Counted from the first letter of the stretch, positions 6,417 to 42,124 are shown. The stretch: DNA of 64,000 nt from an uncultured Solirubrobacteraceae bacterium (GCA_963818035.1 CAWFQR010000003.1:64282-128281); one strand, 5' to 3'. Notes: generated by a model not told the origin, from the letters alone. Numbers and translations: made by a program.

Positions 6417-7571
6417 CAGGCGGCGAGCGCCTCCCCGAGCCTCCTCGCGCCCTCGCGCGCGAGCTCGGCCTCGATCGTCAGCGGCGGCAGCAGCCGGACG
6501 GTGTCCGGGCCGGTCGCGTTCAGCACCAGGCGCTGCTCGAGCAGCGCGCGGCGGACCAGCTCCGGCGCCCCCACGGACAGGCGACAGGCGAGCATCAGCC
6601 CGCGGCCGCGGACCTCGGTGACGTGGGGCAAGCGCCGCGAGCAGCTCCCGCAGCTCCTCGCCGAGCTCTCGCACCCGTGCCAGCAGCTTCTCATCCGCGG
6701 TCAGCTCGAGCGCCGCGAGCGCCGCGCCGGCGACGACCGGCCCGCCCGCGAAGGTCGAGCCGTGGTCTCCCGGCTCGAGCACGTCGGCGAGCCGGGGCCC
6801 GGTCACGAGTGCGCCGATCGGCATACCGCCGCCGAGCGCCTTCGCGACCGTGATCGCATCCGGCACGACCTCACTCGCCTGGTACGCCCACAGCGTTCCG
6901 GTACGCCCCATCCCGGTCTGGATCTCGTCGAAGATCAGCGCCGCCCCGTGCTCGTCGCACGCCTCCCGCGCGGCCGCCAGCAGCTCCGGCGAGAGCACGT
7001 GGACGCCCGACTCGCCCTGGATCGGCTCGAGCAGCACCGCCGCGGTGTCGCCGTCGACCGCCGCGCGCAGCGCCTCGGGCTCGGGCGGCACCGCGCGGAA
7101 GCCGGGGACGAGCGGCGCGAACGGAGCCTGCTTGGCCTCCTGCGGCGTCGCCGAGAGCGAGCCGTAGGTGCGGCCGTGGAAGCCCCCCTCGACGACCACG
7201 AACCCGCCGCCGCGGCGGGCCTTGCGGGCGAGCTTCAGGGCCGCCTCGTTGGCCTCGGTGCCGGAGTTGCAGAAGAACACCTTGCCGCCGAGGCTGCTCT
7301 GCGAGAGGCGCTCGGCGAGGCGCATCGACGGCTCCGTGTAGAACAGGTTGCTGGTGTGCATCAGCCGCCCGGCCTGCTCGCGCACGGCGGCGACGATGCG
7401 CGGGTGGCAGTGGCCGAGGCTCGTCACCGAGATCCCGCAGAGGAAGTCGAGGTACTCGTTGCCCTCGGCGTCCCACAGCCGCGCGCCCTCGCCGCGCACG
7501 AACTCGACGGGCTGACGCGCGTAGGACCCGATCACGCGATCGGACTCGATCTGCTGCAGCTCAGCGAGCAT
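6416..7571 (-). CDS. argD: Acetylornithine aminotransferase (frameshift ~6630)
   Basis: YLDFLCGISVTSLGH, FFCNSGTEANEAA, FDEIQTGMGRTG and AKALGGG (PLP Lys); C-terminus VRGRGLM...VRLLPPL lies in ORF 6416..6694. Confidence 0.93.
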
Positions 7572-8418
7572 CGTCGCTTTCGAAGATCTTGGTGCCGACC
7601 CCCGCATCGGTGAACAGCTCCAGCAGCAGCGAGTGCGGCGTGCGGCCGTCGAGGATGTGCGCCGCCGAGACGCCCGCGTCGATCGCCTGCAGGCACGCTT
7701 CGAGCTTCGGGCGCATACCACCGTCGAGCGCTCCGAGCCCGGCGCGGACGCGGTCGGCGCCGGCCTGGGAGATCAGGCTGGCGGGGTCGGAGGGGTCTTC
7801 CAGCCACCCGGCGACGTCGGTCAGGAACACGACCTTGTAGGCGCCGAGCGCGCCGGCCACGGCTCCTGCGGCCTCGTCGGCGTTGACGTTGTAGGAGTTG
7901 CCCTCGCGGTCGGCGCCGACCGAGGCGATCACCGGGATGTAGTCGCTCGCGACATGCTCGATGACGCCGACGTTGACGCGGTCGATGCGTCCCACGAAGC
8001 CGATGTCCTCGCCGCCCGGGGCCGAGCGGCGTGAGACGCGGAACAGCGAGCCGTCGTCGCCGCAGAGGCCGACGGCGGGCTGGCCGTGCCGTTGCAGGCG
8101 CAGCACGATCTCCTTGTTGACCTTGCCGACGAGGACCATCTTCGCGACCTCGACGGTCTCCTCGCTCGACACGCGCAGCCCGCCGACGAACTCGACCGGG
8201 AGCCCGAGCCGTTCCATGTAGCCGGTGATCTCGGGCCCGCCTCCGTGCACGACGATCGGGTTCAGGCCGACGTACTTGAGCAGCACGACGTCGCGCGCGA
8301 ACTCCTCGCGCAGCGCGTCGTCCTCCATCGCCGCGCCGCCGTACTTGATCACCACCGTCTTGCCGTGGAACTCGCGGATGTACGGCAGCGCCTCGAGCAG
8401 CGTCCCGACGTCACGCAT
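7561..8418 (-). CDS. argB: Acetylglutamate kinase
   Basis: LLEALPYIREFHGKTVVIKYGG, VVHGGGPEI, NVNADEAA, GGMRPKL. Confidence 0.97.
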   Translation of the reverse strand: MRDVGTLLEALPYIREFHGKTVVIKYGGAAMEDDALREEFARDVVLLKYVGLNPIVVHGGGPEITGYMERLGLPVEFVGGLRVSSEETVEVAKMVLVGKVNKEIVLRLQRHGQPAVGLCGDDGSLFRVSRRSAPGGEDIGFVGRIDRVNVGVIEHVASDYIPVIASVGADREGNSYNVNADEAAGAVAGALGAYKVVFLTDVAGWLEDPSDPASLISQAGADRVRAGLGALDGGMRPKLEACLQAIDAGVSAAHILDGRTPHSLLLELFTDAGVGTKIFESDDAR

Positions 8419-8540
8419 GTCGGGCGCCCGCCCTCGTTCGACGCGACCCCGCGGCGCCCGTTCGGCGCACCCCGCTCGGGCGGCGGGCGACGCCGCGCCC
8501 GGGGGTGGCGAGCCGGAGCCGCGGACGACCCCCGACGACC

Positions 8541-9793
8541 TCATGTCGTGTACTCCGAGTTGAACTCGACGTACTCCTTCGACAGGTCCGAGAAGAACAC
8601 CTCGGTCTCCGCGCCGTCGCCGGGCAGCCCGACCTCGTACTCGACCTCGTCGCGCTGGACCAGCCGGTCGAGCTCCGCCTCGTCGTAGGGGATCGCCGCC
8701 CCGGCCGAGCAGACGTGCATGCCCTCGATCGTGACGTCGACGGGGAGCGGCGCCGTGCCGGGCATCGCGCCGCCGACCGATTGCACGATCCTCCCCCAGT
8801 TCGGATCGCCGCCGTGCAGCGCGGCCTTCACGAGCGGGGAGTTCGCGACCGCGCGCGCCGCCGCCTCGACCGTCTCCGGGTGCCCGCCGCGGACGATCAC
8901 CCGCGCGGCGCGCTTCGCACCCTCGCCGTCGCGCACCATCATCACCGCGAGCTGGCGCAGCAGCGCGTCGAGCGCCTCGCCGAAGCGCAGCTCGTCCTCG
9001 CTCTCGGCGGCGATCTCGACGCCGCTCGCGCCGGAGGCCATCAGCAGGGCGGTGTCGTTGGTCGAGAGCTGGCCGTCGACCGTGGCGCGGTCGAACGAGC
9101 GCTTCACGCACACGCCGAGCAGCAGGTCGGCGGTCTCGGCAGAGAGCGCCGCGTCGGTCTCGACGAAGCAGAGCATCGTCGCGAAGTTCGGCGAGATCAT
9201 GCCCGCCCCCTTGCACTGGGCGCAGAGCCGCACCGTTCCCGACGGCAGCTCGACCGACAGGTTCGCGCGCTTCTCGAGCGCATCCGTCGTCTGGATCGCG
9301 TTCTGGAAGCTCGCGTCACCCGCGCGCGCAAGGTCCTCGCGCGCCGAGAGGATCCCCTTCAGCACGAGATCGACCGGCAGGAACTGGCTGATCCCACCGG
9401 TCGAGGCGAGCGCCACGACCGCCGGATCGCAGCCGACGGCGCGCCGCCGCCGCCCCCTGCGTCTTCGCCGCGTCGTCGAGCCCGCGCCGGCCGGTCGCCG
9501 CGTTCGCGCAGCCCGAGTTCACGAGCACGGCCCGCAGCGCAGTCGAGCCGGCAGCGCTCGCGGGTGACCAGCACCGGCGCCGCGGCAGCGCCCGACGCCG
9601 TGAAGCGCGCCGCGCTGACCGGCGTGGGCGCGTCGTTGACGATCAGCCCGACGTCCGGCCTGCCGCTCGGCTTCAGCCCCGCCGTGACACCCGCCGCCCG
9701 GAACCCTTCCGGCAGCCCCGCGCCGGGGCCGAGCTCGCTCACGTGGGCGGGCCGCGGCACCCAGCGCGAGCTGAAGAACTGGTCGCTGGTCAC
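8541..9793 (-). CDS. argJ: Bifunctional ornithine acetyltransferase (frameshifts ~9440 and ~9540)
   Basis: GFRAAGVTAGLK, VNSGCANAATG, KGAGMISPNFATML (autocleavage Thr), STNDT, DPNWGRI, C-terminal NSEYTT. Confidence 0.93.
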
Positions 9794-9885
9794 GCGATCA
9801 CCGCCACCTCACCGGGTCGACGGGCAGCCGCCGGCCGCGCGACCGGCGCCGCCGCGCCCGCGCGGTCACCGCGATGCCCGCGCGG

Positions 9886-10910
9886 TCACGAAACGCCCAG
9901 CGCCTCGTCGTACCCGAACATCACGTTCAGGTTCTGCACCGCCTGCGAGCTGGTGCCCTTCCAGAGGTTGTCGATCGCCGAGAACACGAGCACCTTGCCG
10001 GTGTGGCCGTCGGCGGCCGCGAACAGCCGGCAGTAGTTCGTCGCGACCGTCTCGCGGGTCCCGGGCACCGTCTCGGCGACCTCGACGAACTGCTCCTCGG
10101 CCGTACGCGTCGGCGAACAGCTCGCGCGAGCTCCTCGGCGCCCACCTCGCGGGTCGGCGTGACGTAGCAGCTCGCCATCTCGCCCTGGTCGAGCGGGACC
10201 AGCGACGCCTGGAACTGCACCCGCACGTCGCAGCCGAGGATGCTCAGCTGCTCCTCGATCTCCGGCGTGTGACGGTGCGCGGCGACCTTGTAGGGAAGGA
10301 TGTTCTCGCCCGCCATCGAGAGGTGCGTCTGCTCGTCGAAGGCGCGCCCGGCGCCGGAGATGCCCTGCTTGGCGTCGACGACGACGTCGGCGATCAGCCC
10401 GGCGCGGGCGAGCGGGGCGAGCGCGAGCACCGTCGCCGTCGGGTAGCAGCCGGGGTTGGCGACGATCGCCGCGGTCCGGATCGCGCTCGCGGTGCAGCTC
10501 GGTCAGGCCGTAGGCGGCGTCCTCGATCAGCGCCGGCGCCGGGTGCGGCCCGTACCAGCGCTCGTACGTCTCGACCGAGCGCAGCCGGAAGTCGGCGCTG
10601 AGGTCGACGACGCGCGCGCCCTGCTCGAGCAGCGCCGCGACGGTCGGCGCGGCGGCGGCGTGGGGGTAGGCGACGACCGCCGCCTCGACGTCTGCGAGCG
10701 CGCTCCGGGTCGAGCTCCTCGATCGTCGAGCGGCACGCGATAGCGCGGGTACAGCTCGTGCAGCGGCCGGCCGAGCTCCGAGCGCCCGGTGATCGCGACC
10801 AGCTCGAACCGCGGGTGGCGCCACAGCAGCCATGCCGCGAGCGCGCCGGCGAAGCCGGTCGCTCCCGCGACGATCACGCGCGTCCCTCCCGCGCCGGGCT
10901 GCTCAGCCAC
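9886..10910 (-). CDS. argC: N-acetyl-gamma-glutamyl-phosphate reductase (several frameshifts)
   Basis: GATGFAG, VVDLSADFRL, ANPGCYPT, ISGAGR, HRHTPEI and AIDNLWKGTSSQAVQNLN distributed over several frames. Confidence 0.92.
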
Positions 10911-13356
10911 GGAGCTCGCCCCCGAGCGCGGACAGCGCGGTGACGATCTTCTCCCGCACCGGCGCGACGTCCTCGTCGGTCAGCGTGCCCTCGCGGGAGC
11001 GGAAGCTCAGCGCCAGCGCGAGCGAGCGGCGCCCCTCCCCCACCTGCTCGCCGGTGTAGACATCGAAGATCTCTGCCCGGTCGAGCGTCGGCGCCGCCCG
11101 CCTCGCGCACGGCCGCGAGCACCTCCGCGGCGGAGACGGCGTCGGGCAGCGTGACGGCGATGTCCTGGCGCAGCACCGGGAACTCGCCGAACGCGGCGAA
11201 CGTCAGCACCTCCGGCGCCGCCGCGGCGAGCTTGCCGAGGTCGATCGCGAACGCGGCCGTGCGCGGCAGGTCCCAGGCGGCCGCGACGAGCGGGTGGACC
11301 TCGCCGAGGAAGCCGAGCGTCGAGGAGTCGGCCCCCGGCGATCACGGCGGCGCTGCGCCCGGGGTGCAGGAACGGCCAGCGCTCGGCCTCGGCGGGCTCC
11401 GCGCGCCAATCGACGTGCAGGCGGTCGAGCAGGCCGCCGAGCAGCGCCTTGGCGGTGAAGAAGTCGGCCTCCGGGCGCTCGCCGCGCCACGAGCGCGGGC
11501 CGAGCGCCCCGCACAGCAGCGCTCCGAGCGCCTGGTGCTCGTCGGCCGGCGTCGCGCCGGCGCCGTCCTCGCGCGCGCGGTAGACCCCGCCGGACTCGAA
11601 GATCGCGACGTCGGCGATCCCGCGCGAGACGTTGTGCCGGGCGGCGTCGAGCAGCGAGCCGAGCAGCGTCGGGCGCATCACCGACAGGTCCTCGGAGAGC
11701 GGGTTCTCGATCCTCACGACGGCGCGCAGCGGATGCGCCTCCGGCACCCGCAGCCGGTCGAGCAGGCCCGGGTCGGTGAAGCTCCAGCCGACGATCTCGA
11801 ACAGGCCGCGGCCCCTCATCGCGTCCTCCGCGGCGCGTCGCACGCGCTGGGCGTGGCTGAGCCGGCCGGCCGCCCCGCGCCGTGCCGGAAGCGTCGCCGG
11901 CAGCCGCTCGAGCCCGTCGATCCGTGCGACCTCCTCGATCAGGTCGACCTCGCGCGTCACGTCGTCCCGGCGCAGCGCCGGCACCGTCACCTCGAGGCCG
12001 CCGTCGATCGGCGAGGTCGCGAAGTCGAGCGCCCGCAGGATCTCCGCCTCGCGCGCGGCGGCGACGTCGACGCCGAGGATCGCGCGCACGCGCTGCTCGC
12101 GCAGCGCCAGCGTCTGCAGCGGCGGACCGTCGCCGCCGACGTCGATCGTGCCGGGCATCGAGCCGCGCGCCGCACAGCTCGGCCATCAGCGCCGCGGCGA
12201 CCGCCTGGGCCTGCATCGTCTGCTCGGGCTGCAAGCCCCTTCTCGAAGCGCGTCGACGCCTCGCTGCGCAGGCCCAGCGTCCACGAGGTGCGGTGGATGT
12301 TCGGGCCGTTCCAGGTCGCGACCTCCATCAGCACGCGCGTGGTCGCCGGCTCGACCTCCGAGCGCGCGCCGCCCATCACGCCGGCGATCGAGGTCGGGCC
12401 CGTCGGCGTCGTCGATCACGACCATCTCGCCGTCGAGCGTGCGGGTCTGCCCGTCGAGCGTCTGCACCTGCTCGCCCTCGCGCGCCCGGCGCACGACGAG
12501 CTCGCCGCCGGCGACCCGGTCGAGGTCGAACGCGTGCAGCGGCTGGCCGGTCAGCAGCATCGCGTAGTTGGTGATGTCGACGACGTTGTTGATCGGGCGC
12601 TGGCCGGCGGCGGTCAGGCGGGCTGCCAGCCACAGCGGCGACGGGCCGACCGTGACGTCCTCGAAGACGCGCGCGGTGAAGCGCGGGCACAGGTCCGGAC
12701 ACTCGACGCGCACGCGCGCGCTCGCGACCTCGCCGGCGCTTCCGGGGTCCTCGGCCCACGGCGGCGGCGCGAGCGCGGCGCCGGTCGCGGCGTGCAGCTC
12801 GCGCGCGACACCGTAGACGCCGAGGCAGTCGGGCCGGTTCGGCGTGATCTCGAGCTCGACCACGTCGATCCCGACCGGCAGCACGTCGGCGAGCGGCGTC
12901 CCCACCGCGAACTCGGCATCGAGTCAGGTCGTCGAGCACCATGATCCCGGCGCTGCGCTCCCCCGCCGGCTCGAGCTCCAGCTCCGAGGCGGCGAGGATC
13001 ATCCCTTCCGAGACGACGCCGCGCAGCTTCGCCTTCTTCAGCTTCGTGCCGTCGGGCATCACCGCGCCGGGCCGGGCGACCGCGACCGTCTGCCCGGCGT
13101 CGACGTTCGGCGCGCCGCAGACGATCGTCGCGGGCTGCTCGTCGCCGAGGTCGACCGTGCAGACCTTCAGGCGGTCGGCGTCGGGGTGCTTCTCGGCGCT
13201 CAGAACACGGCCCACCACGAAGCCCTCGGCGGAGGGCGGGCCGAGGTGGTGGATCGCCTCGACCTTCGTGCCGGTCATCGTCAGGCGCTCCTCGATGCCC
13301 GCCACGTCGAGCGGCGGGTCGCAGTACTCGCGCAGCCAGGGAAGCGGGACCTTCAC
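10903..13356 (-). CDS. pheT: Phenylalanine-tRNA ligase beta subunit (multiple frameshifts)
   Basis: HPDADRLKVC, IVCGAPN, ITPNRPDCL, NNVVDITNY, REVDLIEEVARIDG, NPLSEDLSVMR; C-terminus GGELRG-stop overlaps the argC start. Confidence 0.95.
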
Positions 13357-35601: not shown

Positions 35602-35964
35602 GGAGCCCCTGTACCCGAATGTCTGTTCGTGCTAACTCTCGCTCGTTACGCACGCACGTTCGCCTCCTGCGTGAAGCCGCATCGCCGGACGATCCCGATT
35701 GCGCGGCGCCACGCACGGCCGGGTCGGCGCCGGGACCCTCGGTCGAGCCGTCCACGCGCGCGGGACCGCGACGGCGACGGCGGTCTCGGCGGCCGGTTCC
35801 CGGACGCGGATCAGCCGGGCAGGGCCGACCGTGTCGAGGGGCTCGGCGCCGCGCTCCTCGGGCGGCCCGACCAGGCCTCCCTCGATCGCGCGATCAGCCC
35901 GCTGCACGGCGGTCGCGGGATTAGTGTTTAATCAGACACCGGGATGGGGGTGTGTCGAGGGGAA

Positions 35965-38347
35965 ATGCACGCTGGGGATGCGCAGGCCGCGGGCCGAGGC
36001 GCGAACGGTGCACGCCCGCGGCGCCGGACGCTGCTGCTCTCGCTCTGCTCGATCGTCGTCCTGCTCGCCGCCCTGGCCGGCGCCGCGAGCGCCTCCGCGT
36101 TCAGCGCGCACGGCAGCGTCGAACAGCTCTACGTGACGGGCCTCGAACCCGGAGCCCAGATGACGCTGCTGGGGAAGAAAGGCGAAACGGTCGCCACGCA
36201 GACCGCCGACTCGCTCGGCGGCCTGCTGTTCCGCAACGTCGCCCCCGGCAAGGGCTACCGGGTCCGGCTGACCGCGAACAACGAAGAATCCGAACCGATC
36301 ACGGTTCACACGCAGGCCCCCCCGGCCTGGGACAAGAGCATCTACCAGCAGTCGATCCCGTCCAGCGGCTACACGTACCTGACGACCCGCGATGGCACGC
36401 AACTCGCGATCGACGTCCATCCGCCCGGCGTGTCCGGCCTCTCGTCGTCCTCGGACCTGCGCAACTCGGCCTTCTCGACGGCGAGCAAATCCGGCCAGGT
36501 CCCGACGCTGATCGAATACGCGGGCTACGGCTACGCGAACCCCAACGGTCCGGAAAGCGGGATCGCGACGCTCGCGAACCTGATGGGCTTCGCGGTCGTC
36601 GACGTCAACATGCGCGGCACCGGCTGCTCGGGTGGCGCCTTCGACTACTTCGAACCGCTTGAGGACCTAGACGCGTACGACGTGATCCAGACGATCGCCC
36701 GCCAGCCGTGGGTGCTCCACCACAAGGTCGGGATGCTCGGCATCTCCTACGGCGGGATCAGCCAGCTGTTCGCTGCGCAGCTCAAGCCGCCGGCGCTCGA
36801 CGCGATCGCGCCGCTGTCGGTGCTCGACGCGACCGCGACGACGCTGTACCCCGGCGGCGTGCTCAACACCGGCTTCGCGGTGCAGTGGGCCGAACAGCGC
36901 CAGTTCGATGCCGAGCCGGCAGGGCCCAGCACCGGCGAGCACTGGGCCTACGAACAGATCGAAAAAGGCGACACGACCTGCGCCGCCAACCAGGACATGC
37001 ACGGCGAGGCCACGAACCTGCTGTCCGAAATCAAAGAAAACGCGACGTACAAGCCGTCCGTCGCCGACGCGCTCGACCCGATCACGTTCGTCCACAACAT
37101 CGACGTGCCGACGTTCATGGCGTGCCAGTGGGAGGACGAGCAAACCGGCGGGCACTGCGCCGACCTGGCAGAGCACATGACGGGGACCGAAAAGAAGTGG
37201 TTCACGTTCACCAACGGCGTCCACGGCGACTCGCTCGACCCGGACACGATCAACCGCCTCTATGACTTCCTCGAGCTCTACGTGGCGCGGCAGGCGCCGA
37301 AAACGCATTCGGAAATCCTCGATGCGGCGGCGCCGACGATCTACCACGCCGCGCTCGGAGTGCCGAAAGAAGACCAGGTCACGCTGCCGCCCGACCCGAT
37401 CCAGGAAATCAAGACGTACGGCAAGGCGCTGTCGGCGTTCGACGCGATCCCAGAGGTCCGCGTGCTGTTCGACAACGGCGCGGGGACCTCGCCGACCGGC
37501 AACAAAACGCGCCGGCAACCCGTACCCGGGCTACGAACAGACCTTCTCCTCGTACCCGGTCCCGGGCACCACGGCCGAGTCCTGGTACCTCGAGCCGGGC
37601 GGCGAACTCGGCGAATCGCCTCCTGCGTCCTCGGGCTCCGACAGCTACACATCCGACGCGACCGCGACGCCGCTGACCGACTACGGCAGCAACACCGGTC
37701 CCGGCGGCGAGTGGGGCGTCGCCTCCCAGTGGGAATGGAAATGGAACGAGCCGTCGAGCACCAACTCCGTGTCCTACGTGACCGCGCCGCTCAGCGCCGA
37801 CACCACCGCGATCGGCGGCGGGGCCGTCAACCTCTGGGTGAAGTCCTCCACGCCGGACGTCGACCTGCAGGCAACGGTCAGCGAGGTGCGCCCGGACGGC
37901 AACGAAGAGTTCGTTCAGAACGGCTACATCCGCGCCAGCGAGCGCAAGCTCGCGACGACGTCGGAAAACATGTTCAAGCAGGAACCGACGGCGCTCGAGC
38001 CGATCCCGACCTTCCTCGCGTCCGACGTGCAGCCGATGCCGGCCGGCGAATTCGTGCCGGTCACGGTCCCGCTGTACTTCGAGGGCCACGCCTACCGGGC
38101 GGGCTCGCGGATCCGCGTCACGATCGCCGCACCGAACGGCAACCAGCCGGTGTGGTCGTTCAGCCAGACGCAGCCGGAAGGCACGACGTCCCAGGTGTCG
38201 ATCGCGTTCGGTCCCGGAATGGCCTCGAACCTGACGCTGCCGGTGGTGCCCGGCCTGAGCGTGCCGACGGCCCTGCCGGCCGCCTGCCCGAGCCTGCGCA
38301 ACGAGCCCTGCCGGACCTACCAGGCACCCGCCAACAACGGGTCCTGA
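35965..38347 (+). CDS. Secreted CocE/NonD family hydrolase (frameshift ~37510)
   Basis: TRDGTQLAIDV, VNMRGTGCSGG, GISYGG nucleophile; PepX-like C-terminus GHAYRAGSRIRVTI in ORF 37262..38347. Confidence 0.9.
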
Positions 38348-38464: not shown

Positions 38465-39355
38465 TCAGCCGCCGGCAAAGCGCGCCTGCTGTGCGAGCAC
38501 GCTGCTCACGTACTGTTCCGTTTCCGGCAGCTCGCCTTCGCGGCGGACGGATTCGAGGCCCTGGTAGTAGCCGGCCGCGGCGAGTGCGGGATCGCCTTCC
38601 GTTTCGCTCAGGAGCCAGTGCAGCATCAGCACCCCGCCGCGCACGTTCGACGCCGCCGACGCGGGGTTCAGCTGTGTGCTCCCGGCCAGGTCCTGGCCGA
38701 TCCAGCTCCAGGTCCCCGGCAGGATCTGCATCACGCCGCGCGCGTCGGAGCCCGAGGTGAAGCGGTTGTTGAAGCCGCTCTCCTGATCGGCGATCGCCTC
38801 GGCGAACGAGGAGGGCACTCCGTTTTCGGCAGCGATCGCGCCGACTTCCGACGGGGCGATCGTTTCTTCGGTCGGGTACGGCGCATCGGCAGTCGCCGCC
38901 GGTGTCTGGCCTTCGCTCGCCGGCACCGGCGAGGCGCCCGGCACGCTCACCACGGTTCCCGCGAGCAGCGGCGCTTCGGCATCGAGGCCGTTGAGCGCCG
39001 CGAGGCTTTCGACGCTCACGCCGGAGCGGGCGGCGATCGCGGAGAGCGTGTCTCCGGGCTGGACGACGTATGACCCGCCACCTTCGGCGGGAGCCGGCGA
39101 TTCGACGGGAGCCGCGGCTTCGCCCGCTTCGGATGCGGCCGCTGGGATCGTGATCGTGGATCCGGCGACCAGCGCGGATTCGGTCGAGAGGCCGTTGGCC
39201 GCCGCAAGCTGTTCGACGCTGAGCCCGTCGGCGGCGGCCACGGACGACAGCGACTCGCCGGGTGCGACGAGGTGGCTCACGTCCGCGTCGGCAAGAGATG
39301 GGATCGCGAGGAGGAGCGAGAACGCAAGGATCGAGGGCAATGCACGAGGGCGCAT
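38465..39355 (-). CDS. LysM x2 plus lytic transglycosylase (SLT) protein
   Basis: HLVAPGESLSSVA, YVVQPGDTLSAIA, QESGFN, ARGVMQI. Confidence 0.92.
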   Translation of the reverse strand: MRPRALPSILAFSLLLAIPSLADADVSHLVAPGESLSSVAAADGLSVEQLAAANGLSTESALVAGSTITIPAAASEAGEAAAPVESPAPAEGGGSYVVQPGDTLSAIAARSGVSVESLAALNGLDAEAPLLAGTVVSVPGASPVPASEGQTPAATADAPYPTEETIAPSEVGAIAAENGVPSSFAEAIADQESGFNNRFTSGSDARGVMQILPGTWSWIGQDLAGSTQLNPASAASNVRGGVLMLHWLLSETEGDPALAAAGYYQGLESVRREGELPETEQYVSSVLAQQARFAGG

Positions 39356-39508
39356 GGTGGCGACCTCGGCGCCCGCCGCGGCGATCGCGAGCTCTGCAAC
39401 GACAGATTCCCCGGACTTCCGCCGCGCCGGTCTCAGACGGTCATGGATCCGACCGCTGCGATTCGCCGGCGGCCGCGCATCAGCCGGTCCGCGCGGCCGG
39501 CCGCCGGC

Positions 39509-39739
39509 TCAGACGGCCTGGCTCTCGACCTGCGGCGGCTCGGAGTCCGCCGTCTCCTCCGCACCGGCCTCGGCGGCCTGGTCCTGGATCGCGAGGTAGA
39601 CCTCACGGCGGTGAACGGGGACGTCCGACGGCGCCTGGATCCCGATCCGAACCTTGTCGCCGGTCACGGCGAAGACGGTCACCTCGATGTCGTCGCCGAT
39701 CATGATGCTCTCACGGATGTTGCGGGTCAGGACGAGCAC
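39509..39739 (-). CDS. csrA: Carbon storage regulator CsrA
   Basis: [22 protein letters not shown]...[19 protein letters not shown]; GGAGG SD. Confidence 0.95.
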
Positions 39740-39873
39740 GCTGCCTCCAGAAATCCGACTTAGATCCGGCGCCCCCAGCACTCTGCCTCTCGTGTACTGC
39801 GATCCGACACCAACGAGCATACCGCTGAGACGCCACCGAGGTGCGAAAAGCACGTATGTTTTGCGTGGGGGAC

Positions 39874-41081
39874 ATGACCGAGACAGGCACTGGAGCATCG
39901 CTGCGACTCCACCGGCAAGCCGGGCTTGCTGTATGCGTCTTCGTCTGCCTGATCTGCGCGGCGATGCTGCTCGCGCCCGGGGCGCTCGCTCAGGGGACCG
40001 GAGGCGCAGGCCGGAGCCGAAACCGGCGCCCCGCTCGACCGAAGCGAGCGCCGGGGAATCCCCGGCAGGCGAAACGTCTCAGCCGAGCACCCCGGCCGCT
40101 GAAGAGCAGAAGGCGCCCGCGGCGCAGGAAACGACAGATCCCGCGCCGGGCGCCGCTCAGGAAGAAACACAGGGCGGCCAGGCGGAAGGGGCATCCGCCA
40201 AAGAAACAACGACGACGACGGAAGAAGCGCCGCCCGCCCACGGCGAATCGAACCCGCCTCCCGCCCAGGGCGAAACGCCGCCCGCCGAGGAAACGCCGCC
40301 CGCCGACGAAACGCAGACGACGAAAGAAGAACCGCCGGTGCAGGCGCCGGCAACGAAAGAAGAAGCGCCGTCCGCGCAGGAAGCGCCCGCCGCCCCGGAA
40401 ACGCCGAAGGAAGACTCGCCGGTCCGCGAACAGTCGACGATCGTGCTCGGCGAAACGCCGGCGGCCGAACGATCCGTCCCCCCCACGGAAGCGGCCCCGC
40501 CGGCCAGGCAGCAGGCGCTCTCCGAAACCGTGTCGAGCGGAGGCACCGCCGACCCGGCCGCCGAAATCTCCCCCGGCGGTTCGGAACTCGCTTCTGCGGC
40601 GGGAACCGTGCCGGTGGTCCCTGCGACGATCTCGGGAAGCCAGCCCCTCTCGAGCGTGCCGGCCGCGAGCGCGCAGAGCGGCCCCGGAGCCGGCTGCCTG
40701 ATGACATCGCTGACCGCCTCGCTCAGCGCCCGTTGTGCGAGCGCGTTGCTGGTCGGCCAGCAGGAACCCGTGACGGTCCTGTTCGAGCCCGCGTCCGCGA
40801 GCGGCTCGCAGGCGGCCGTCCGGACGAGCGCATCCGGCTCGAAGGGCCGCGCCGCGACGGCGGTGGACAGCGATCCTCCGGCGCAGAGCCCGGGACCGAG
40901 CCCCGGCGGGTCCGGCGCGCCTTCCGCCGCGGCCGGCAGCGGCGGGTCGAGCTCCTCGACGTCGCTGACCCTGTTCAGCCTCTCGCTGCACTTCACTCCG
41001 AGCGCCACACGACTGCTGCACCTCTCGCAGCCGGAGTGGCGCACCTCGTTCGCCGCGCTGATCCTCGAGCGCCCCGACTAG
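39874..41081 (+). CDS. Exported low-complexity protein ending in LILERPD (frameshift ~40010)
   Basis: Signal peptide [24 protein letters not shown] in ORF 39841..40701; E/P/A/T- then S/G-rich body and C-terminus in ORF 39654..41081. Confidence 0.7.
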
Positions 41082-41161
41082 CTCCTTCCGTCGCTCCACA
41101 TCGGGTCGTGGCGCGGAGCCGCGGCCCAGTTGCGCATTCGGAAACCTTGAAAGGAGCTGTT

Positions 41162-41642
41162 GTGAAGGAGCCTCATTTGACGTCTGCGGCAGTCAGCCGC
41201 TATCTGGACGACGAAGACCTCGTGGTGCACGCCCGCGCCGGTGGCGACGAGGGCCCTACGTGACGAGCCGGGGTCGCCGGTCGCCTGGCGACACACGCTT
41301 GTCGTGAGGGGCACGCTCGACGAAGACCTGACAGCCGAGCTCGAGGAGGAGCTCGAGTGTCTCTGCGAAGAAGGTGTCACGAGCGTGGTGCTCGACGTGC
41401 GCGAACTTCGCGCGCTCGAGCCGCTCGGCGCACAGGCGATCGCCGCCGGCGGCGCGTTCTGCCGGCAGCGGGGCCGTGATCTGCAGGTGATCTCGGGCTC
41501 GCCCGACGTCGAGCAGCTGCTCTCGCGAGTGGGTGCCGGCGATCTGCTGGTGACGCAGCCGGGTGGCGGTCGCGGAGCAGCGCCGGCAGGTCTCGGCGCC
41601 GCCGAGGCAGCGGTGCAGACCACGACGGTCAGGGAGCTGTAG
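41162..41642 (+). CDS. STAS domain anti-sigma antagonist (start 41162 with an indel ~41240, or start 41241)
   Basis: AAAGGAG SD before GTG 41162; LVVRGTLD...VVLDVRELRALEPLG...VEQLLSRVG STAS pattern. Confidence 0.75.
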
Positions 41643-41716
41643 TCGAACGTCGGCGCTTCGACCCCCGGGATGCCCTCGCGGCTCCCGGGGTCGTCGCGCG
41701 GCGGGGCGCGCGCCCC

Positions 41717-41805
41717 AAAAGTCGAGTGCTGCCGGCACCGTAGCTGTGGGGGTACGGGCGCCGGCAGCAGCCCGACAAGAGGCGACCCCTGAGGGAGCGG
41801 GCCGT
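41717..41805 (-). ncRNA. Candidate ~90-nt small RNA
   Basis: Minus-strand TTGCAC-N17-CAAGCT promoter-like element, long hairpin 41721-41776 then TTTT; no credible ORF. Confidence 0.4.
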
Positions 41806-42124
41806 GTCAAAAGCTTGACCATCCGGCGACAGCGGTGCAAGGCATGAAACGAAGCTTCCAGAAGCCCGGTGGGCCGGCCGGCCCGCCGAGCGCTTAGGCG
41901 GCGTCGGGAGCGACCTCGCGACGCCGTGCCTGCGACCCGGCGGACGACGACTGTCGAGCGCCCGACGCCCGCGGCGACGAGCCGGTGCGATGTACGATCA
42001 CGTCCGCTCTCGGTCAAGGGGGAAACTTGAGGACGGCCCGAAGGATGCTTGCTCGCAGAGCCGTGGCGGCTGTCGGCGGTGCGAGGGTCGCGCCGGCACC
42101 GACGGAAGCAGCCGGAGCCCAACG

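Follow-up and report, generated by a model that had tools for sequence, protein, structure and literature searches.

The window analysed here is a stretch of 64,000 nucleotides from an uncultured Solirubrobacteraceae bacterium (GCA_963818035.1 CAWFQR010000003.1:64282-128281), and positions are counted from its first letter. It contains a leader gene that encodes a signal-peptide-like start, a long linker and a short conserved tail, followed by an intergenic RNA with complementary segments and a gene with a STAS domain (Table 1). A divergent csrA gene precedes the leader, as it does in related loci (e.g. L004-L006, L009, L011-L015 and L034). Within 38465-39739 (minus strand) this csrA lies upstream of a LysM-SLT gene, and there are three csrA-like matches genome-wide. 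The original prediction took the locus for a candidate arrest-peptide switch of the secretion-monitor kind, in which a ribosome stalled at the end of the leader would free the SD of the STAS gene.

Table 1. Features of the leader-STAS locus in window coordinates
Feature	Position	Strand	Basis
csrA, divergent neighbour, marker of the orthologue clade	39509..39739	-	Pfam CsrA, 88 bits
Leader N-terminus, signal-peptide-like (basic stretch, hydrophobic core, A-L-A)	39874..39990	+	Translation
One or two frame breaks at the signal peptide/linker boundary, probably assembly error	39995..40040	+	Translation, indel rate, intact paralogue P0001
Linker, low-complexity, Pro/Ala/Glu/Thr-rich	40041..40694	+	Composition shared with family; no Pfam or NCBIfam match
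Cys pair C-x12-C, residues -128 and -115 from the C-terminus	40695..40736	+	Conserved in relatives
Hydrophobic segment, weak in window copy (best 17-mer 0.69)	40947..41009	+	Family profile
Fixed-length tail R-L-x-L...W-R-x3-F-x-L-I	41010..41066	+	Ungapped profile, 145 loci
E-R-P-D and UAG stop, candidate arrest core	41067..41081	+	Conserved tail ends of homologues
Anti-SD including stop codon, UAGCUCCUUC	41079..41088	+	93.6% of cells paired, 49 loci
Central hairpin, sequence variable, structure kept	41103..41127	+	All 8 counted pairs change on both sides
SD AAGGAG (41151-41156), GTG (41162), AAG at the homologues' ATG site (41165-41167)	41151..41167	+	
STAS-domain gene with N-terminal extension, frame break near 41240-41263	41162..41642	+	Domain at about 41298-41549
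GC-rich hairpin past the STAS stop, without U run, possible transcript end	41659..41693	+	-29.6 kcal/mol for 41655-41700

The leader ORF of the window ends ...LILERPD-TAG, with the TAG at 41079-41081; the LERPD-stop ending that had been predicted is thus present, overlapped by an anti-SD at 41080-41087. The same prediction placed the signal peptide and this ending in one ORF. By translation, the ATG at 39874 with its signal peptide lies in a different frame, and the signal-like start joins the leader only across the frame break. The linker, described earlier as long and disordered, is indeed long and of low complexity but not featureless, since a conserved Cys pair lies inside it.

By a rough codon-frame model, the window has 13 frameshift-like junctions, and 12 other stretches of the assembly have from 0 to 16 per 10 kb of coding DNA. 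Contig C8 carries an intact paralogue of the leader (375 aa) and contig C1 a broken near-copy of the same. Because indel-like junctions are common in this assembly and the C8 paralogue is intact, assembly error is the simpler reading, and the frame breaks and the AAG in the window copy are probably errors of that kind. We consider it rather unlikely that the window copy is a decaying pseudogene instead of a mis-assembled intact locus, a separate question that concerns this copy only. Such decay would fit the two or three frame breaks and the ATG-to-AAG change inside 1.4 kb, the weak outer RNA helix of this copy and the presence of an intact paralogue in the genome. However, indel-like junctions are frequent assembly-wide, breaks also affect the C1 copy and an adjacent hydrolase gene, and the tail, UAG, anti-SD, hairpin and Cys pair of the window copy are all intact.

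Some further observations concern the assembly. G000:C1:1385500-1389500 and G000:C8:3500-7500 are highly similar copies of one neighbourhood, with clean frames on C8 and broken ones on C1; this duplication suggests two strains in the bin. A CocE/X-Pro dipeptidyl-peptidase-like gene (window 35944-38347) is split over two frames near 37400-37510, and a cluster of ten frameshift-like junctions at 6600-12950 (minus strand) marks either a low-quality stretch or a decayed region.

The RNA between leader and STAS gene has the complementarity that had been claimed for it: the anti-SD AGCTCCTT overlaps the TAG and is the exact reverse complement of AAGGAGCT (41151-41158), and the 10-bp hairpin that they enclose is present, with two G-U pairs. 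A second GCUCC lies 3′ of the anti-SD (41093-41097), and the AAG at the homologues' start site creates a second AAGGAG. Taken by itself, the window junction folds modestly better than its shuffles (z -1.72; 12 of 200 shuffles as good), and synonymous-codon randomisation of the window's own tail gives p=0.95. That the complementarity exceeds chance follows from homologues: CTCC stands directly 3′ of the stop in 54 of 65 STAS-anchored homologues (described below), as against 8 of 1966 long coding-like ORFs of the window's own genome. Neither a sigma-70-type promoter nor a plus-strand terminator with a U run was found in 39300-42000, and six family loci gave no Rfam match at E<=1.

The SD at 41151 had been assigned to the STAS gene. 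It leads to the GTG at 41162 and from there into a 33-codon frame ending at 41263, with the STAS domain in another frame. This short frame was rejected as a remnant of a sigma factor, since in alignments it corresponds to the extension at the N-terminus of STAS homologues. The domain itself scores 24.5 bits with Pfam STAS, above the cut-off, and has profile matches to SpoIIAA/RsbV structures. The proposed anti-anti-sigma identity holds at the level of the STAS fold, whereas TIGR00377 gives 19.5 bits against a cut-off of 53.45. The Ser of the STAS domain is a phospho-acceptor. At its position the window copy has no Ser (E-P-L-G), while 32 of 62 parsed homologues have one (12 more were unparsed). 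The target therefore shares its fold with the SpoIIAA/RsbV antagonists of anti-sigma factors but differs from them in falling far under the TIGR00377 cut-off, in its extra N-terminal extension, and in the absence of the Ser from the window copy and about half of the parsed homologues. The STAS target also has a conserved Cys. STAS genes and secreted targets often share the start M-K-R-H or M-K-P-H (window 41162-41185), as if the cassette had taken along the opening codons of an earlier secreted target.

Relatives were collected by tail searches of 61 related genomes, 151 of the order and 301 of the class, and by a contig pattern scan that required ERP[G/D]-UAR followed by an SD and an ATG but left the anti-SD free. 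The pattern scan gave 115 loci from 17 of the 64 parts of the collection (about 460 expected). The records of 86 of these are labelled Solirubrobacterales, Solirubrobacteraceae, Conexibacter, Thermoleophilaceae or Gaiellaceae, and those of 8 more unspecified actinobacteria. Pooling the two kinds of search produced 171 rows, and 11 low-scoring rows from other taxa were dropped as chance matches. Removal of duplicates left 147 loci, and two without an automatically called start were lost, giving 145 loci, of which 74 precede a STAS gene and 71 some other gene. A full protein-cluster scan with the tail profile found 539 clusters at 50% identity; among 18 cluster members looked up, 5 were named, always 'hypothetical protein'. 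ERP[G/D]-stop leaders are a large real family in Thermoleophilia.

Databases say little about these proteins. The leader matches no Pfam or NCBIfam family and no sorting signal; a word-index protein search returned 2 matches only, and the ESM Atlas only unnamed ones, all below 0.9. An AlphaFold model of the last 150 residues is of low confidence (pLDDT 55.5, pTM 0.18) and was not used as evidence. Outside the class, none of 29 loci scored above 8 bits with the tail profile, nor did 8 viral matches, and a 15-base pattern in 301 genomes of the phylum was, by eye, no commoner than its reversed control. The same profile misses L343, a likely divergent member within the class (-4.7 bits), so this lack of outside members is not proof of absence. 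One clear member, L127 (41.6 bits), comes from a record labelled Asanoa and reflects either mis-binning or transfer. The family was not found in the literature searched, and the string 'RPG' is absent from the main text of PMC10987492; the supplements of that paper and of PMC12992588 could list related ORFs.

Since these locus sets had been selected on the motif, we also used a motif-independent search by STAS domain alone. In 121 genomes of the genus it gave 98 matches, of which 79 loci, mostly omitting those already known, were examined upstream using a tail profile built without the last five residues. The tail is present upstream in 65 of the 79, and all 65 end x-[E/D/A]-R-P-[G/D]-stop (ERPG 45, ERPD 18, DRPG 1, ARPG 1), the stop being UAG in 64 and UAA in one. 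In these tails the Arg and Pro codons vary in the third base and never in the first two; retention of Arg and Pro through synonymous changes points to constraint at the protein level. Among the 14 loci without a profile match, five end [E/D/Q/A]-R-P-G-UAG. Three of these five, all weaker loci, keep the Arg by AGA, a codon that makes up 0.7% of Arg codons in the window's own genome. One more ends E-K-P-D-UAG (by eye), and eight, the weakest STAS matches, have nothing similar.

Among the 1966 long ORFs of the own genome, by comparison, 2 end x-R-P-[G/D]. The best 150 of the 539 cluster representatives have ERPG (128), ERPD (21) or EQPD (1), and the motif is terminal in all 150. Leaders found by protein search use stops other than UGA in 57 of 58 cases, against 67% UGA among long ORFs of the genome. 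UAG and UAA are RF1-type stops. The loci are related, so the counts are not independent.

An alignment of the last 45 residues needs no gaps. It shows Gly at -45, then a hydrophobic stretch, R-R-L-x-L from -23 to -19, W-R at -14/-13, F at -9 and the terminal ERP[G/D]. In 69 of the 100 loci whose hydrophobic 17-mer scores at least 1.6, with starts allowed from -50 to -39, the 17-mer starts at -45 to -43. A TM helix in E. coli begins pulling with its N-terminal end about 45 residues from the PTC (PMC7886326), and a segment about 44 residues before the stop would fit this onset of force, a match that is suggestive only. A signal-like start, judged by a simple hydrophobicity rule and not a trained predictor, is present in 102 of 111 full-length relatives; the 58 leaders measured with such a start are 265-477 aa long (median 398), and the conserved C-terminus lies more than 30 residues from the signal. 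In all 19 csrA-linked copies checked, the window copy included, the segment scores 0.28-1.36, too weak for a membrane helix.

This architecture might be that of a surface protein whose tail is a C-terminal membrane anchor or sorting signal, with the RNA helices serving transcript stability or pausing. The family tail is Gly-rich and hydrophobic with Arg-Arg and resembles GlyGly-CTERM; a hydrophobic 17-mer of at least 1.6 followed by R-R occurs in 65 of 71 non-STAS leaders, and the central hairpin covaries strongly. We nevertheless regard an anchor as very improbable, given that no Pfam or NCBIfam sorting signal matches and that the segment is weak in the clade of the window while ERP[GD]-UAG is kept. 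Nor does an anchor explain why a non-coding CTCC follows the stop, or why a gene in the same orientation lies 70-109 nt away.

STAS-group leaders have a Cys pair near -127 and -114 (modal spacing 13), encoded by both TGC and TGT. At least two Cys fall at -150 to -100 in 101 of 111 full-length relatives, as against none of 111 in an equal control window upstream. The leader could thus be an arrest leader whose input is redox state or metal, via this outer pair, and not export capacity. A precedent has been proposed in CutF, where periplasmic Cys modulate stalling (bioRxiv 2025.02.05.636593), and the conserved Cys of the STAS target agrees with it. Two Cys occur, however, in only 4 of 54 non-STAS leaders, and among 59 STAS leaders 6 lack the first Cys and 18 lack a pair. 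With a spacing of x12 that is not CxxxC, and with no metal genes among the targets, such an input seems improbable to us.

Helices were counted in 49 of the 74 STAS junctions; eight divergent ones were left out by hand and the others as redundant. Anchored registers were used, because mutual information was dominated by phylogeny and RNAalifold gave almost no consensus. Across the 49 loci five helices are 87.5% paired, against 31-49% in slid registers, and 14 pairs have changed on both sides; together with the 65 tails, this bears out the conservation of C-terminus and pairing that the original prediction called for. Two helices (92% and 81% paired) are formed by the F-V-L-I codons with RNA just 5′ of the SD; this pairing of the last tail codons is weak in the window copy. 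A third helix pairs the R-P-[G/D] codons behind the anti-SD and hides the anti-SD in a loop (86%). The central hairpin is 83% paired with two-sided changes at all its pairs. The anti-SD:SD helix, which includes the UAG, is 94% paired and mostly invariant: 1 of 8 pairs changed on both sides, in about three events on the tree as against nine that break pairs. The outer helix has more A-C mismatches (41) than G-U pairs (31). Because the anti-SD helix and the outer helix cross, they are either alternatives or parts of a pseudoknot. Pairing of the W-R codons with the first codons of the target was also considered and found unconvincing, with 6 of 6 pairs in only 12 of 74 loci.

An anti-SD after the stop is typical of the STAS subfamily, with at least 4 pairs predicted in 33 of 73 STAS loci and 2 of 72 others. 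In non-STAS loci it is the x-E-R codons that pair beside or into the SD, and codon -5 covaries with its partner (ATC:GAT 19, CTC:GAG 11, and CTA:TAG 5, the last with a rare codon and in related loci). Helices of at least 6 bp are found in 52 of 71 non-STAS loci, against a shuffled mean of 10.7. Synonymous-codon randomisation gives a weak signal (median z about -1; p<=0.05 in 16 of 74 STAS and 13 of 71 other loci).

With positions -15 to +12 around the stop masked, folding lowers the cost of opening the window SD from 8.7 to 4.4 kcal/mol. The opening that had been proposed is therefore predicted for the window copy (a gain of 4.3 kcal/mol), but in most STAS loci it is small: relative to ribosome-free RNA the median gain in STAS loci is 0.5 kcal/mol, and a gain of at least 2 is predicted in only 19 of 74 STAS loci, 26 of 71 others and 4 of 33 control gene pairs. 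With a wider ribosome-binding window the counts become 21 of 74, 49 of 71 and 4 of 33. In the predicted folds another helix conceals the anti-SD, and the SD is covered again by a local hairpin. In a scan of ribosome positions along the tail, the median cost in STAS loci is 6-7 kcal/mol with the ribosome upstream. The SD is computed to be most closed (10.2-10.9) with the A site at codons -6 to -4 and to open most easily (5.6-5.9) once the A site has reached codon -2 or lies between there and the stop; the drop is at least 2 in 57 of 74 loci. For the STAS subfamily the scan thus predicts an SD that is opened by a ribosome on the last codons alone and locked by one a few codons earlier. In the 36 of 71 non-STAS loci that were run, the SD is predicted to open from about -10/-8. 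The target is co-oriented and 70-109 nt downstream in all 58 protein-found loci with a called start.

Two rival readings bear on this junction. One is that the product of the divergent csrA controls the STAS gene through intergenic GGA sites. The gene is adjacent and syntenic in the clade, and in the window GGA lies in the hairpin loop and in the SD; the corresponding GGA of homologues, however, is in the stem and not the loop, and the C8 paralogue has the same junction on a contig without a csrA match, so we give this reading almost no credence. The other is ordinary translational coupling without arrest, in which each terminating ribosome opens the helix briefly, STAS output follows leader translation, and E-R-P-G/D is kept for a role after release, e.g. 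as a protease or partner-binding C-terminus. The helices require only that ribosomes pass, most STAS loci show little difference between the free and the ribosome-bound state, and the rare tail codons (ATT, GTT, CCA, CGA) fit RNA pairing. Coupling does not account, though, for a gap-free tail of fixed length across families, for the near absence of UGA, for a tail that persists even with a segment too weak to act as an anchor, or for a peptide end that stays constant while the target genes change. We judge it unlikely.

Among 71 non-STAS targets 68 were scanned. Thirty have a peptidoglycan-binding domain, 15 of these with a resolvase domain as well, and eight are sigma-70 factors; the remainder comprise one LuxR response regulator, one STAS protein, one HATPase, one sub-threshold match and 26 without a family, many with signal-like starts. 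The original label of secretion monitor does not suit the family in its usual definition, because none of the 74 STAS and 68 other targets is sec or yidC. Some of the targets are themselves unusual. The 15 of 68 with a resolvase or recombinase (L036, L038, L039, L041, L043, L045, L067, L118 and others) combine a signal-like start, peptidoglycan binding and the recombinase in one frame, an odd outside-inside fusion. Other targets fuse peptidoglycan binding to TPR or, in L184, to a pyruvate oxidoreductase domain. The targets of L021, L022, L037, L082, L083, L085 and L102 are secreted Gln/Asn/Ser-rich repeats with no Pfam match above cut-off and, by eye, a surface- or amyloid-type look.

Known arrest peptides were compared with the family from parts of the cited papers. 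Termination arrest is described there for signal-bearing leaders ending NSP-stop, NAP-stop or DGMK-stop (PMC10987492), and partial arrest for R-A-G/P (PMC12992588); both were counted as precedent for an arrest reading. The termination-arrest leaders share with the family a localization signal, a long spacer, conserved last residues and a stop codon that, in the family, is predicted to stand in the A site. The family differs from them, as far as those parts describe, in its motif (R-P-G/D), its phylum, its length, its second hydrophobic segment and its targets, which are not secA or secDF; and none of the terminal motifs NSP, NAP or DGMK occurs in it. An export signal and a conserved C-terminus before an SD-hiding structure, which is a predicted one in the family, are common to the family and to SecM, MifM, VemP, ApcA, ApdA, ApdP and the RQH group (PMC7897499, PMC10987492, PMC12992588). 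RAPP-like peptides (RQH, ApcA, ApdA, ApdP) halt elongation at R-[AG]-P-[PG] or R-A-G-P while the A site holds a sense codon. Like R-A-G/P and R-A-P/P, the family has an invariant Arg three residues before the presumed A-site codon; unlike RAPP-like peptides, it has a stop at the fourth position and Pro as the middle residue.

Substrates of Sec/YidC monitoring are recognised by criteria that include a downstream sec or yidC gene and a length of 80-200 aa (PMC10987492, PMC7897499). Family leaders have the N-terminal signal and distal C-terminus of such substrates but not their size or sec/yidC location; SecM-type leaders, as described there, are small and stand before sec/yidC genes, and the family does neither. 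Localization signals and non-Sec targets, sigma factors among them, are shared with the RAPP/RGPP leaders of the actinobacterium Streptomyces lividans, two of which stand before ECF sigma genes; these carry an elongation motif and are under 300 aa (PMC12992588). A RAPP/RGPP search would miss ERP[GD]-stop. CutF-cutO and CruR-bfrG (DUF2946) also have a secreted leader, outer Cys, an SD-shielding stem, which in the family is a predicted one, and a non-Sec target (bioRxiv 10.1101/2025.02.05.636593 and PMC12992588), but the family is without a DUF2946 match, CxxxC, PPP or RAPP, and its targets are not copper genes. The ending of the family matches the motif of none of these arrest-peptide classes; the original prediction had remarked that motif and target differ from known arrest peptides. 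Judged from sequence, it would work like SecM-type and termination-arrest leaders, as a candidate arrest family that is a member of none of these classes.

The reading that we favour, with some reserve, is that of a termination-arrest leader that gates STAS translation, with the pull of export likely ending the pause. An exported-type leader would bring to the ribosome a stop codon that is complementary to the SD of the next gene, and its E-R-P-[D/G]-UAG tail would likely slow termination. While a ribosome is detained at the stop, the SD would stay free for translation of the STAS gene, until pulling on the nascent chain during export likely ends the pause. Slow export, or slow folding of the outer part, would then raise STAS output and might evoke a sigma-factor response. 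Here the conserved peptide end, the stop, the tail length, the complementary helices and the modular targets are observed and the tie between SD opening and the last codons is computed; the dependence of arrest on the peptide, its release by force and the envelope or export signal that raises STAS output are what we infer. More tentatively, and on balance doubtfully, ERP[G/D]-UAG may be a new RF1-stop termination-arrest module that forms a portable envelope sensor of Thermoleophilia. Its pull would be tuned by the hydrophobic segment, placed about 44 residues from the catalytic centre, and, in the STAS subfamily, by the Cys pair, and the cassette would have moved before anti-sigma antagonists, sigma-70 factors, response regulators and cell-wall-binding proteins.

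A tail of 45 residues makes the arrest cheap to test, and hybrid in vitro systems with actinobacterial ribosomes exist (PMC12992588). Even without arrest, the locus would be an unusually elaborate switch for translational coupling. The export-coupled arrest peptides known so far act mostly on the export machinery itself, whereas the targets of this family include transcription regulators. If the arrest reading is true, these leaders, with at least 539 clusters and a fixed force-sensing geometry, would represent a new arrest chemistry and would connect the state of the envelope with sigma-factor control in a class of bacteria that is abundant but barely studied; and should the sensor be portable, the state of export and envelope would reach transcription without a kinase or protease between.
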